Shown: piece by piece, positions 20,880 to 27,265 of the stretch | How positions within the stretch are numbered: position 1 is the first letter of the stretch | How the letters are laid out: the number at the start of each line of letters is the position of its first letter | Assembly (NCBI GenBank): GCA_010093815.1 | Contig: ML996569.1 | Direction: 5' to 3' (one strand) | DNA from: Pseudovirgaria hyperparasitica | Lineage: Eukaryota | DNA: 64,000 nucleotides | Position numbers and translations under genes: made by a program | Notes under the pieces: model-generated | The model's database searches: none | Told to the model about the DNA's origin: nothing | The model's input: only the letters and a program-made list of their open reading frames with translations

Positions 20880-21921
20880 TCAGCCTGGAGGAAGCGTGCT
20901 TGCATCAACAATATCCTGAGCATCCTTCTCATCAATCTCTTCAGATCCGTACAAAGGTGAACGTGGGAGAGCCATCAGACCTAGGAAGTGTCAATCGCCA
21001 TAGAAGATCAGATTACTATTTTGACTTACCAGTCCTAGCACTTTCCAAAATGCCAAACGGAGCAACCAGCTTCATGAAACTCTCGATTCTGCTGGGTTTT
21101 GCCGAAACTTCGACAATACAGTTGTTATTGCTGATGTCCAACACCTTTCCACCAAATTGGTGAGTCAGGTGAGTGATTGCTTCTAAATGCTCATGCTTGT
21201 GTCTCAGAGCTTCGCTCACGGCTAGCTTGCTCGGATGAAAGTCGCGTTCTGACTGGGCAAGACTATGTGCATTCCCCAGCTGCGAAGCGGATTCTGCATC
21301 GGCTTCCAGCTCCTCCGGTCCATTATCGGTCACCATCTCTCGATGATGAGCCAATAATTCTTCGAAATATTCCGGACCGAGAATCGATACCTTGGCCAAG
21401 AGCAACTCACGCTGAACGAGCGGAGCAGCTGTATAGTCCAGGACAGCCCAGACTGGGACAAGATCTTCTAGTTGACGGCGCGCCTGTTCAACGACGCCAT
21501 CTTGTCCCTGAAGTACAATTGTCATTCGAGAGAGATCCTCAACCTCAGTGTTGCAAACAACCAGCGAGTCGATGTTGAAGCCGCGCGCAGCAAGAATGCC
21601 AGAAACACGAGAAAGCACACCGGGCTCATTTTGCACGAGACAGTTGAGCACATGTCGTTTCGGAGGAGCTGACGAAGGCAACGGGGTCTCGTAGAGAATC
21701 GAAGAAACAGCAGCAGGAGCCGACCATGACGATGGTGTATCTTGGGTGGGTAGAGGTGCGGTTCGGCGGTGAAGGGATTTGTATGCAAGGGCTTGTGTTG
21801 AGGAGTTTGACGAGTTTCGCACCTGCTGTGACTGAAGACAAGTAAGAGAATTGGTATTTGTAGAGGGTCGCAGTAGTTGTCTACTGTTAGGCAGAGCCAG
21901 TATAGCTCGCCGAGTTGCCAT
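20880..21921 (-). CDS. ILV6: Acetolactate synthase regulatory (small) subunit, mitochondrial; 2 exons
   Basis: HVLNCLVQNEPGVLSRVSGILAARGFNIDSLVV ACT domain; last exon GLMALPRSPL..STLPPG*. Confidence 0.96.
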
Positions 21922-22260
21922 CGTGGATGTGTGTACAGCGCTGACCACAGAGATCGAGCTACTATCTGTTGAGTCGAGAGCAAAAAGCCGAGAACGTGAA
22001 TCACATCCGAGCTTGGATTATGCGATGTCGGCGCTAGATATTCCGCTCCGCTGTGCCTTGGCAGTCCCCACTCGCCTTCATCACGCATAAAGGCGGGTCG
22101 GCATTCCGCCGGCCCTAGATACTCATCTAGCCTGGGCTTCTTTCACTGTTACCCGCAACTCGAAGATTCGGCTTCACGATCACGCGCCGTCGCTTGTCTT
22201 CGCCGATGTTGGTAGTGTGATACCCAAAGTCTTCTTCTATTCCTACTTCTATCAGTCACC

Positions 22261-24234
22261 ATGGGCCGCTTCGACCAGACTGAGCGCAAACCGACGCGCG
22301 AACGCCGTTCGCGATCTCCATCCTCAAGGACCTCCGAACCCATTCGCGAACGCAGCCCAATCCAGCGAGAAGAGACTGATACACCCTCAAAAGAGCAACT
22401 GAAAGCTGATGCTGCAGCGAGAGCCAAGGCCGCTGCTGAGAGGATCAACGCGTCTCTTGCGGCAAAGAAAGCTATTCAAACAGTCGATGTCCCTCCAATC
22501 CGCTCAGTACGTACGTGATTCCTGTTCGTCTATCAGACTAACAAATGTGTTTTGCAGGCAAGCACCGAAGCTGCCAAAAAGTCATCTGGCGTTGCTGGCG
22601 TTAGCGACGAAATCTACACGCAAGATGGGGATTTCATCCGCGACATCGAGGTCAATGATTTACGAAATCGCTACACCTTGACCAAAGGCTCAACACAGAA
22701 AATGGTAAATAATTTTGTCATCTTGCACAACTGATCTTCAGGCAGTCCCTGTCACTCTCTGTCCCTTCAGTCACATTGACCCCACTTCAGGGCTTGTGGG
22801 AAGTATCTGTAATGTGTTTTACGCATGTGGGATCAGTCCAGAAGCTTACCACAGTGCTCATTTAGCCGCTCTTCTCGCGAGCTCATCCCCCAATTTTGCA
22901 TCTGCTGACCGCATCTGTGTGACATCTAGATCAAAGAAGAAACTGGCGCCGGTACGCTACCACCTGACTACCATAGAATTGTTTGAGAGACAACCTTACT
23001 TATATGTGTCAAGATGTCACTACCCGCGGCGAATACTACCCGGATAAGACTTTAGCCACTGCTGCTGTAAGTGTCTTCTCACCCAAGGTCAAACAGAACA
23101 GAAAGCTAACATTATATAGTCTCCACCTTTGTATCTCCATATCACAAGCACGAGCAAGGAGGGTCTTGAGCAGGCTGTCGCTAAGATTAATGAATTGATG
23201 CAGCAGGAACTACCTAACCTGGTTGATGAGCGTAGATTTCGCCGTCGTGAGCCTGAGCAATTTGAGCGAGATGAACTGGGTCGAGTCTGTCTCCTTGCCT
23301 CAAGCGAGATTGAACAACATGCTAATATATTGACCCAGCGCAAATGGCCGGAGGAGCGCATTCCCATCGATCTAGAGCCGATCCCAGGCTTCAATCTCCG
23401 AGCCCAGGTTGTCGGTCATGGGGGAGCATATGTGAAACATATCCAGCAAGAGACTCGATGCCGTGTTCAAATCAAGGGTCAGAATTCTGGCTTCATGGAG
23501 CCAAACACCGGAAGAGAAAGTGACGAGCCCATGTATCTTCATGTTGCGTAAGTGCAGGTTTGGACGTCATGCTTGTCCGTTACTGATTCTCATAGTGGCC
23601 CGGATCCGAACGAGGTCAAGCGCGCAAGAGGTCTCTGTGAAGATCTCCTAGCAAGTGTCAAATCGCAATACGAATCTTTCAAGGAGCGTGGCGGCGCTCG
23701 CGGACGTTACGGTGACCGGGAATCGAATGGAGGCGGCCGGGGTGGATACGGGGGTGGTGGACGTGAGTATGGTGGTGGCCGTGACTCTGGCGATCACTAT
23801 GGATACGGCTCGCAACAGTCTCCGACTGGCCAAGGTGACCCCAACAGCCAAACCGCCACCCCCTCGTCGGCAAATGCAGACTATGCAGCCCAATACGCCC
23901 AGTACTACCAACAGTATCAGCAGTACGCCCAAAATGGTCAGGATCCGTACGCTGCTTACGGGGGCTATGCGAATTACATGGCTATGTATCAGCAGTACTA
24001 TGCCCAGCAAGCAGGTCAAGACCAGAGTGGTGGTACCCCAACCCAGGCAACTTCACAAGCGCCTCCACCTCCTCCTTCGAACGATGCGCCGCCTCCACCT
24101 CCTCCGTCCGGATCTGATGCTCCCCCGCCACCGCCTCCTGGTGTACCGTCTGGTTACAACAACGTAGGAGTGTTTAAGGCTCTCCGTGTCTGCTTGCTAA
24201 TTGATAATAGGTTCCACCACCCCCTGGGCTATAA
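22261..24234 (+). CDS. KH-domain RNA-binding protein (KHDC4/Blom7/RIK-like), ~8 exons
   Basis: DIEVNDLRNRYTLTKGSTQ|IKEETGA|DVTTRG.YYPD; FNLRAQVVGHGGAYVKHIQQETRCRVQIKG..ESDEPMYLHV; RGG, Y/Q-rich and poly-Pro tail; spliced end VPPPPGL*. Confidence 0.88.
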
Positions 24235-24677
24235 ATGCGTACGGAAAAGCTCCACATGCTGACATTGTGCTGTTGTCTCTGATACCTCTCACAGGTGCTA
24301 GAGTCTTGCTGAATCTGGGAAGAAAGGTCAGATATCTCTCCAATCAGTATATGTGGGATCCATACGGCAGCATTTCATATTGCATTGGCGTCGAGATTGT
24401 GTTTAGAATATGGGCTATGAACCTGAAGCCCGGTTGTTGCTAGCTCAGAGCGTAATCAAATAATCCTGTGTCAGGTAGACTCTAACAATGAAGAAACATC
24501 TGATACTCCAAATTTTTGACAAGATATCTGTGTTGTGATGCAAGCGGTTTTGAGCTGCACGGGCCTGGCCAATCGGAGGGCTTCTAATTACCTCCGATTT
24601 CGCATCATCGCGAACACCCAAAAAAGTTCAGCGCTGGACCAGGTTGCATGCGATCACAGCGACTGATCTGGTGCACC

Positions 24678-27265
24678 ATGTCAATACTTTTCGCACCCGC
24701 CCGTGGTTCTCGTGTCGCTCTCTCGCGAGCTGATCTGGTAAGTTTCAACATCAATTGCCTACAGTAGTCGCGTGCAAGAATCCACAGCTTCCACCCAGAA
24801 ACCCTCCAACATCAAATAATTGATGGCTGACGCTTTGCTACTAGAGAACCTCGCGATGTGTAGGACAGGTCAGCAGCTCAATTCGGAGCCTGGCAACAGT
24901 CACAAACCCTCGCCCTCCTCAAATCGACATTTCATCTCGCACGCCGCCGTATCCTAAGCTCCTCAAGCGCCTAGCAGAAGTCCGCCGTGTATTGGGCTCA
25001 AGTCGCGCCCTTACCCTGGCAGAGAAAATCCTTTACTCGCATTTGGACAACCCTGAAGAATCACTCTTGACGAACACTCAGAATGGCGCCAATATTCGAG
25101 GCGTTGCCAACCTCAAGCTCAAGCCCGATCGCGTGGCCATGCAAGACGCATCAGCTCAGATGGCTCTTTTACAGTTCATGTCCTGCGGAATGTCCACTAC
25201 GGCTGTCCCTGCGAGCGTCCACTGCGATCATATGATAGTCGGAGAGAAGGGCGCGGACACAGATTTGCCGAATTCGATAGCAGGGAACAAAGAGGTTTTC
25301 GACTTTCTTGAAAGCGCTGCGAAGAAGTACGGAATTGAGTTCTGGCCGCCTGGTGCGGGCATCATTCATCAGTCAGTATTGGAGAACTACTCGGCACCTG
25401 GGTTGATGATGCTGGGAACCGACAGTCATACACCAAACGCTGGGGGACTAGGTGCCATCGCGATCGGCGTAGGTGGCGCTGACGCTGTTGATGCCCTAGT
25501 AGATGCTCCTTGGGAACTCAAGGCACCTAAGATCCTAGGTGTGAGACTCGAAGGACAACTCAGCGGCTGGACTTCTCCAAAAGACGTGATCATGTACCTG
25601 GCTGGGAAACTCACAGTCAGGGGTGGCACAGGGTTCATTATTGAATACCATGGACCCGGCGTGGACACCTTGAGCTGTACCGGAATGGCTACAGCTTGTA
25701 ACATGGGAGCAGAAGTTGGCGCCACTACCTCTCTCTTCCCCTTCTCTCCGGGCCACATCTCATACCTAGAAGCTACTCATCGTGGTCCCATTGCTAAGCA
25801 AGCAGCTGAAATTGCGTCATATGAATCTTCTCGAAATCTTCTCCGTCCAGATCCCGATGCCGAATATGACCAACTCATCACTATAAATCTGTCGGAACTT
25901 GAGCCACACATCAACGGACCTTTCACCCCTGATCTTTCTACTCCGCTTTCGAAGTTCAAAGATACTGTCGCTATAAACAATTGGCCTGAGACTTTCGGTG
26001 CTGGACTGATCGGTAGCTGTACAAACAGCTCATACGAAGACATGACCCGTGCCGAACACCTTGTCAAACAAGCTCAGGCTGCTGGGCTATCTCCTAAGGC
26101 CGATTTCTTTATTACTCCGGGAAGCGAACAGATCCGTGCAACACTTGAGCGAGACGAGACACTGTCAACATTCTCGTCCGCTGGTGGTACTGTACTCGCA
26201 AATGCGTGTGGACCGTGTATCGGCCAATGGAAGCGAAATGACGGTGTTGAAAAGGGTACTGACAACGCCATCTTCACATCATATAACCGCAATTTTCCTG
26301 GTCGCAACGATGGCAATCGCAAGACAATGAACTTTCTCGCGTCTCCGGAGATTGTCACGGCAATGAGTTATTCTGGCAGTACAACATTCAATCCCATGAC
26401 TGATAGCATCCCGACCTCAAATGGACAAGAGTTTCGGTTCAACCCCCCATCTGGCTACGAGCTACCATCGGCAGGATTTGCAGATGGAAACCCACTTTTC
26501 CAGCCTACGCCCGGCGTACCAGACCCGACCGTAGATGTGGCCGTGTCTCCTACCTCTGATAGACTTGCACTTCTAGAACCATTTGCACCTTATCCAACCG
26601 GTCAGGAATTTTCCGACCTTCGCGTGCTATACAAAGTCAAAGGCCAATGCACAACCGATACCATCTCGGCAGCTGGTCCGTGGCTGAAGTACAAGGGTCA
26701 TCTACCCAATATTTCCGAAAACACCCTCATCGGCGCCGTCAACGCAGCAACAGGCGAGACTAACACAGCCTATGACACCGATGGCACGACATCCGGTATT
26801 CCAGAGCTGGCGAAGCGTTGGAAAGATCAAGGCCGCGAGTGGATCGTCGTAGCCGAACACAACTATGGCGAGGGAAGTGCGCGAGAACACGCCGCCCTGC
26901 AACCGCGCTATCTAGGTGGCCGGATCATCCTTGCCAAGAGCTTTGCTCGTATTCACGAGACGAATTTGAAGAAACAAGGCGTCATCCCATTGACGTTTGC
27001 GAATGAGGCGGATTACGATAAGATCGATGCTTGCGATGAGCTGAGCACCAGGGGGCTCTGGGAGACGCTGGAGAGTGGCGGCAAGGGTAGCGTGGAGCTT
27101 GTGGTGAAGAAGAAGGACGGCTCCGAGGTCGTGGTGCAGACGAAGCATACGCTAAGTGCTGATCAGTGTGGGTTTATTATAGCAGGTAGTGCACTGAACT
27201 TGCTTGCGCGACAGGCACAGGAAGCACGAGAAGAGGTCGTTAGGGGAAATGAGTTGAGCGATTAG
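24678..27265 (+). CDS. ACO2: Mitochondrial aconitase family protein, ACO2/AcoB type (homocitrate dehydratase-like); 1 intron
   Basis: DRVAMQDASAQMA, HCDH, GTDSHT, IGSCTNSS, ANACGPCIG, TTDTISAAG, NYGEGSAREHAA; ACO2 rather than ACO1 inferred from TTDT and GSARE variants. Confidence 0.85.

Follow-up and report, generated by a model that had tools for sequence, protein, structure and literature searches.

Conserved linear splice signals in an oversized intron of a KHDC4/Blom7-like gene of Pseudovirgaria hyperparasitica suggest an unproductive-splicing cassette

The second intron of a KHDC4/Blom7-like gene of the fungus Pseudovirgaria hyperparasitica lies within a 64,000-nucleotide (nt) stretch of contig ML996569.1 (GenBank assembly GCA_010093815.1), hereafter the window, whose numbering is used throughout. 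The intron is long in all orthologous sequences sampled and carries three conserved linear blocks of splice-like signals, and an acceptor inside it is used in transcript-like contigs of related fungi. Intron 2, the 22-nt micro-exon that follows it and intron 3 probably form an ancient unproductive-splicing cassette, which would set the dose of a splicing factor through linear signals and not through a fold.

The gene comprises eight exons on the plus strand (22261-24237, with its ATG at 22261), modelled at 22261-22506, 22558-22704, 22930-22951, 23014-23066, 23120-23284, 23339-23547, 23596-24163 and 24211-24237. Its predicted product is, by sequence, a 477-aa KHDC4/Blom7-like K-homology (KH) protein of P. 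hyperparasitica. Exon 6 is 100% identical to the 477-aa 'hypothetical protein EJ05DRAFT_474748 [Pseudovirgaria hyperparasitica]', a K-homology protein, and matches the Pfam profile KH-I_KHDC4-BBP with an E value of 2.4e-23; in single-exon searches a second profile, KH_12, is split between exons 2 and 5. The KH domains are thus of the branch-point-binding-protein type (KH-I_KHDC4-BBP), and together with a human relative that alters splice-site choice they place the host gene among those of RNA-binding and splicing proteins. The first KH domain begins in exon 2 (22558..22704, plus strand), which covers KH_12 profile positions 2-26 and ends in ...TQKM at phase 0, as the transcript junction confirms. 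In an alignment with 20 named Pezizomycotina homologues the joins of exons 2, 3 and 4 are gapless (...TLTKGSTQKM/IKEETGA/DVTTRG...), and therefore no coding exon is concealed in intron 2.

Intron 2 (22705..22929, plus strand, GT..AG) is skipped as a 225-nt segment in transcript contigs of two sequencing runs, X1 and X2. A first-pass annotation made from the sequence of the window had described this intron as oversized and the exon after it as a micro-exon, and both descriptions are borne out by the spliced contigs: the remaining six introns measure 51, 62, 53, 54, 48 and 47 nt, and a 1781-nt contig from run X1 joins all eight exons exactly as modelled, including the 22-nt exon 3 (22930..22951, plus strand; IKEETGA plus 1 nt). 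Contigs from run X2 also agree with the modelled junctions, and an exon of 22 nt is present in all the orthologous loci listed. Both runs derive from one sample of one study, for which spliced contigs are present and the kind of library is not on record. The contig data neither show nor exclude an unproductive isoform in P. hyperparasitica, since rare forms are dropped by contigs.

Orthologous introns were gathered from metagenome contigs scanned with a homologue alignment, in which 326 pattern matches gave 231 confirmed matches and 80 loci that were kept. A complete unspliced intron at the same position was present in 60 loci (59 from metagenomes and the window), corresponding to 42 distinct sequences. 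The best named hits of the loci are proteins of Lecanoromycetes, Leotiomycetes, Dothideomycetes and Eurotiomycetes at 50-85% identity, with class labels that are to be taken as rough. Orthologous intron 2 is long in 42/42 distinct sequences, with a median of 188 nt and a range of 102-236 nt; intron 3 is 55-70 nt in the orthologous loci, and introns 4-6 range over 45-72 nt in these genes, one mis-parsed row (intron 5 of locus L074) having been set aside. When the comparison is held to one set of 25 species, intron 2 has 47 columns conserved at 80% or more, intron 3 has 15 and intron 4 has 8, the last confined to the ends of the intron.

The orthologue alignment resolves intron 2 into three conserved linear blocks, between which the sequence cannot be aligned. 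Blocks were counted by regular expression in the 42 sequences, a procedure that took block A of L080 for block B, misassigned L057 and L060 by taking an upstream GCTTAT, and missed the variant ACTCA of L024. At the upstream end the intron opens with a weak donor, GTAAATA (22705..22711, plus strand), which has A at position +5 where the other introns of the gene have G. The GTAAAT donor is shared by 40/42 orthologous sequences, and A occupies +5 in 28/29 cases for intron 2 versus G in 47/47 for introns 4-6. Block A (22730..22741, plus strand) consists of a branch-like ACTGAT followed by CTTCAG and together with the donor outlines a 37-nt pseudo-intron (22705-22741). Its CTGAT is found in 38/42 sequences and the entire pattern of donor, branch-like site and YAG in 40/42, with a pseudo-intron length of 32-43 nt. 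The first-pass annotation had pointed to three CTTCAG sites, and these are indeed present at 22736, 22765 and 22785, but only the first (22736-41) falls within a conserved block. No use of the block A acceptor was seen among the transcript-like contigs described below. The variable middle that follows (22742..22843, plus strand) has essentially no conserved columns.

Block B (22844..22865, plus strand) pairs a weak branch-like GCTTAC (22844-49) with an inner acceptor, TTTAG, that ends at 22865; a second YAG within the block, CACAG, ends at 22854. The block takes the form GCTTAC, GCTCAC or ACTGAT with a YAG 12-25 nt later; hardly any variation is seen in its AG or in the next base, C. The pattern was returned for 41/42 sequences, one of which (L080) is in reality block A. 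A TAG near 22863, which had been read in the first-pass annotation as an in-frame stop reached from an alternative acceptor, is present, but it is itself the conserved inner acceptor. Block C (22887..22910, plus strand) contains in the window a C-run (22887-91), TTTTGCATCTG and the productive branch site GCTGAC (22904-09), and the layout seen across the alignment, spanning 22887-22929 in the window, is a C-run, TTTGCATCTG, the strong branch site GCTGAC and GTGACATCTAG, the last a conserved segment (22919..22929, plus strand) that leads to the productive acceptor. In the 32 nt that precede the productive branch site, a C-run of at least three is found in 30/42 sequences versus 11/36 control introns; its usual position in those 30 is -15 to -18 relative to the branch site. 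Judged from this comparison, the conservation of the inner acceptor and of the weak signals of the intron extends to at least four Pezizomycotina classes.

Block B was also considered as a U1-like mimic in which GCTTACC would pair with the donor (GGTAA), and the idea was rejected by eye, given a donor that is invariant and a block B that varies without compensation. An extended version of the same complementarity, TTACCAT with ATGGTAA, is confined to a few lineages and was likewise rejected as a conserved feature. One locus outside the 42-sequence set, L045 (3314-3497), has an intron near-identical to that of L043 and L044 except for a consensus donor, GTAAGT, in place of GTAAAT, and may represent a natural 'repaired donor' allele. 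In L078 (1450-1860) block C and the micro-exon occur twice in inverted orientation, probably as an assembly chimera.

Use of signals within intron 2 is visible in relatives of P. hyperparasitica. Twelve metagenome contigs of mRNA-like lengths that lack the other introns were treated as a transcript-like set. Five of these are fully spliced (L001, L002, L003, L004 and L009), one keeps intron 3 alone (L029) and three keep intron 2 alone (L012, L019 and L021); the intron 2 of L019 matches exactly that of L074-L077, genomic loci in which introns 3-5 are present. In the other three (L005, L006 and L023) the inner acceptor is used, exon 2 being joined 50-55 nt upstream of the productive acceptor, and all three extensions run into a stop codon. 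The inserts are not whole short introns, because they start with CC, CT and CA and never with GT. Comparison with related genomic loci (L069 and L070) puts the start of the L023 insert exactly past their block B TAG. The inner-acceptor junction reads ATG/C..., so that no donor is regenerated. The premature-stop splice event is therefore one that is seen in contigs of relatives; for the window the equivalent product was derived in silico only, where use of the inner acceptor would add 64 nt (22866..22929, plus strand) to the micro-exon, shift the frame and lead to a predicted stop, TGA, at 22920-22922. Every YAG inside the window intron leads to a stop if used in the same in silico manner.

Two further observations concern the contigs themselves. 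In L006, at about 115-125, exon 2 contains an in-frame stop (LTK*STQKM) besides the inner-acceptor extension, which may reflect a sequencing error or a decaying copy. Contigs L011, L027 and L036 keep introns 2 and 3 and lack introns 4-5, and are either partly spliced transcripts or lineages that have lost their ordinary introns but keep the cassette.

Intron 3 (22952..23013, plus strand, 62 nt; donor GTACGC), defined by the transcript contig, has unusual signals of its own. It contains a CTGAC at 22964, a CATAG at 22972-76 and a weak branch-like CTTAC at 22995, and ends in the non-consensus acceptor AAG. Across the window and 28 metagenome loci the donor GTACG is present in 29/29 and the AAG acceptor in 29/29, versus 3/47 for introns 4-6. 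In 27/29 there is an inner YAG 15-40 nt upstream of the acceptor, typically at about 22-27 nt, with a branch-like CTCAY or CTTAY between the two; no contigs using this inner YAG were seen.

The cassette could operate as follows. On the productive path the weak donor GTAAAT would be joined to the strong distal branch site and its acceptor (GCTGAC...TAG), and a competitor to that productive site would be the inner acceptor (ending at 22865) with the weak branch site that serves it (GCTTAC...TAG). Use of the inner acceptor, or retention of intron 2, would yield an mRNA with a premature stop ahead of the KH domains, and such dead-end forms may be degraded by nonsense-mediated mRNA decay (NMD). The fraction of transcripts lost to them would set the dose of the KHDC4/Blom7-like factor. 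The ratio of productive to unproductive forms may be regulated, with the KH protein itself or general spliceosome activity as the putative input, and block A beside the donor may act as a decoy intron too short to be removed. The intron would be kept long because the conserved splice signals must be housed within it. The first-pass annotation had proposed poison splicing of a splicing-factor gene, and this part of its proposal gains indirect support from the conserved inner acceptor and the contigs of relatives; the folded switch by which it was to work does not. A more specific version, in which KHDC4-like KH domains recognise branch-like and C-rich elements of their own pre-mRNA (blocks A and B and the C-run) and thereby shift acceptor choice, would amount to structure-free autoregulation with a decoy intron and is a tentative, rather unlikely elaboration. 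Human Blom7alpha, also known as KHDC4, is reported to alter 5' and 3' splice-site choice in minigenes, and its motif obtained by SELEX is given as (U/A)1-4 C2-6 (U/A)1-5, with which the C-run just upstream of the productive branch site, flanked by A/U and conserved in position, may be compared.

Several points weigh against this account. The productive junction is the only form present in the contigs of P. hyperparasitica, among which none covers 22716-22869. The transcript-like contigs of relatives are metagenome assemblies of unknown RNA type, the retained introns could be nuclear precursors, and the count of 3/12 with the inner acceptor says nothing on abundance. In L080 (582-683) a 102-nt intron has blocks A and C without block B, which makes block B dispensable in that lineage and the intron a natural deletion of the inner acceptor. 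The SELEX motif of Blom7alpha is a loose one, and the variable part of the intron also frequently contains C-runs (34/58 windows). In a human minigene Blom7alpha is reported to have favoured the distal 3' site, and this preference, if transferred here, would raise productive splicing and would not give simple negative feedback. Sensitivity to NMD and a response to protein level are steps that we infer.

The first-pass annotation had interpreted intron 2 as a folded RNA, with three nested helices and a mutually exclusive pairing that would act as a switch. The complementary segments exist where they were placed: ACTGAT at 22730 and GGATCAGT at 22830, CACATTG at 22772 and TAATGTG at 22810, CCCAC at 22781 and GTGGG at 22796, and, for the alternative pairing, TGACCCCAC at 22777 and GTGGG at 22827, with an ACA at 22851, 15 nt past the alternative arm. 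Most of the helices lie in the variable middle of the intron, however, where they are not conserved, and they appear in neither the minimum free energy (MFE) structure nor the centroid structure of the window intron. The MFE is -52.2 kcal/mol, compared with -52.16 +/- 4.53 for 200 dinucleotide shuffles (z -0.01), and 87/200 shuffles fold as well or better; the minus strand has a z of +0.68. Orthologous introns (n=31) have a mean z of +0.32, with z below -2 in 1/31, and RNAalifold predicted 0 pairs from the alignment of the same 31. For the three nested helices, 39.8% of the cells of this alignment pair, versus 37.5% when shuffled and 35-44% when slid, and the mutually exclusive pairing scores 42.1% versus 45.1% shuffled, counts that are weak evidence in the variable middle, which aligns poorly. 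Structure beyond chance is not supported for this intron, and the conservation that had been looked for in orthologous introns is one of sequence, in three linear blocks, and not one of paired positions.

Two elements of the predicted fold stand apart. An end-bridging 'zipper' helix between TGTCA (22716-20) and TGACA (22920-24), the latter within the conserved segment before the productive acceptor, is present in both MFE and centroid structures and was rejected, with 72.4% pairing versus 72.9% shuffled and no covariation. A small local hairpin at about 22864-22883, also in both structures, is short and GC-rich (GCTC..GAGC in the window) and lies directly downstream of the inner acceptor, and segments resembling GCCG..CGGC were noticed by eye after the inner acceptor in some Dothideomycete-like loci.

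An RNA switch, in which mutually exclusive helices expose or hide an acceptor, would draw on these complementary segments and on the local hairpin. The lack of excess stability, of a consensus structure and of pairing above shuffled or slid controls has already largely refuted it, and term searches of the main text of two screens for fungal RNA structures (PMC5640933 and PMC8216456) found no mention of a KH-domain gene, leaving this explanation very improbable. Intron 2 could otherwise host a small RNA, such as an H/ACA or C/D small nucleolar RNA (snoRNA) or another guide RNA, as the first-pass annotation had raised as a lesser option, or be a spliceosomal twin intron (stwintron) or recursive intron removed in two steps. 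Its length is within the range of snoRNA-hosting or twin introns, the ACA lies 15 nt past a possible pocket arm, and donor-like and acceptor-like motifs occur inside it. The guide RNA finds no counterpart in Rfam, from which lineage-specific snoRNAs may be missing: a search of 22200-23400 at E<=10 and one of the whole window at gathering score each gave 0 matches; a C box is found in 0/42 orthologous introns on the plus strand, and the middle of the intron, where the body of such an RNA would lie, is not conserved. For a nested intron, a GT follows the block A YAG in only 1/40 sequences, and the inner-acceptor junction leaves no donor, so that both forms of this explanation are highly unlikely. 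A still slighter chance attaches to the blocks being DNA-level elements, such as an intronic enhancer, in place of RNA signals. Block C does contain CATCTG and TGAC-type motifs, which are candidate elements, the former E-box-like; yet every block matches a splice-signal consensus (donor, CTNAY branch sites or YAG) in the sense orientation and at splice-signal spacing, and one of them serves as an acceptor in transcripts.

More substantial, though in our judgement still unlikely, is the explanation that the signals and the length of intron 2 are constitutive architecture for a micro-exon that is hard to splice, ordering or assisting the removal of introns 2 and 3, with the additional isoforms as noise. 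Its premise is that two spliceosomes cannot occupy sites 22 nt apart, and it accommodates the unusual conserved signals of both introns beside the 22-nt exon, the contigs in which intron 2 is kept and intron 3 removed (L012, L019 and L021) or the reverse (L029), and the exclusively productive form in P. hyperparasitica. However, an acceptor of no use beyond making waste should decay on this explanation, whereas the AG in question hardly varies from class to class; a conserved weak donor (A at +5 in 28/29) is hard to see as a splicing aid, and unproductive forms reached levels sufficient for assembly, making up 6/12 contigs. The near-invariance of the inner AG and the conservation of the weak donor count against pure noise without being decisive.

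The unproductive-splicing cassette proposed here has likenesses in several known systems. As with the poison exons and sites through which animal and plant SR and hnRNP genes couple alternative splicing to NMD (AS-NMD; review, PMC11062102), the host is a splicing-factor gene, intronic conservation is far above that of neighbouring introns (here 47 columns versus 8), and the alternative choice, seen in contigs of relatives, would place a premature stop upstream of several exon junctions. It differs from them in occurring in filamentous fungi with 50-nt introns and in involving an inner 3' splice site and retention in place of a cassette exon, with NMD and feedback as presumed components. The autoregulated yeast introns of RPL30, RPS14B, RPL22 and similar genes are likewise described as longer than average, and in these the product is reported to control removal of its own intron through a conserved, protein-bound RNA structure, whereas no structure or covariation is detectable in intron 2. 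Fungal splicing control by thiamine pyrophosphate (TPP) riboswitches, as presented in PMC5640933, similarly uses competing sites in an intron to choose between productive and unproductive mRNA; the TPP riboswitch has a covarying, Rfam-listed aptamer with long-range pairing, in contrast to intron 2, which has no Rfam match or conserved pairing. Stwintrons of Pezizomycotina, as described, are also oversized and carry additional donor-like, branch-like and acceptor-like motifs, but in them removal of an inner intron completes the outer signal, whereas here no donor is regenerated and the inner-acceptor product is a dead end.

In mammals, decoy splice sites and decoy exons promote intron retention. 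Block A resembles these in looking like a splice unit (donor, branch-like site and YAG within 32-43 nt) to which factors may bind, yet one shorter than all real introns of the gene set (45-72 nt), and differs from them in that its role as a decoy is presumed.

No description of intron 2 was found in searches of the literature on KHDC4/Blom7, AS-NMD of fungal splicing factors, unproductive splicing in filamentous fungi, stwintrons or fungal structured RNAs, the last including the main text of the screens PMC5640933 and PMC8216456. It is best filed as a deeply conserved fungal case of the known unproductive-splicing control of RNA-binding-protein genes, and is not a new kind of RNA element. For animals and plants there is ample documentation of alternative splicing that is regulated and conserved, and for filamentous fungi most non-canonical isoforms are regarded as noise. 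The present splicing-factor gene has, in all lineages sampled, retained an intron of three to four times the length that is usual. If the autoregulatory version is correct, the circuit would date back to an ancestor shared by at least Dothideo-, Eurotio-, Lecanoro- and Leotiomycetes, would have been retained since then and would be among the oldest conserved regulated splicing events in fungi. Whether unproductive splicing controls dosage in Pezizomycotina could be tested concretely on this intron, which is easy to mutate and also bears on how a spliceosome that works by intron definition handles micro-exons. It also advises caution in structure-based reading of raw sequence: the complementarity seen in one species is what chance provides, and the real signal is linear and visible only by comparison.

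The gene is flanked in the window by two long open reading frames, one at 21016-22017 on the minus strand, which by eye may encode an acetolactate-synthase small-subunit (ACT-domain) protein, and one at 24845-27265 on the plus strand, likewise by eye a putative aconitase-family protein.

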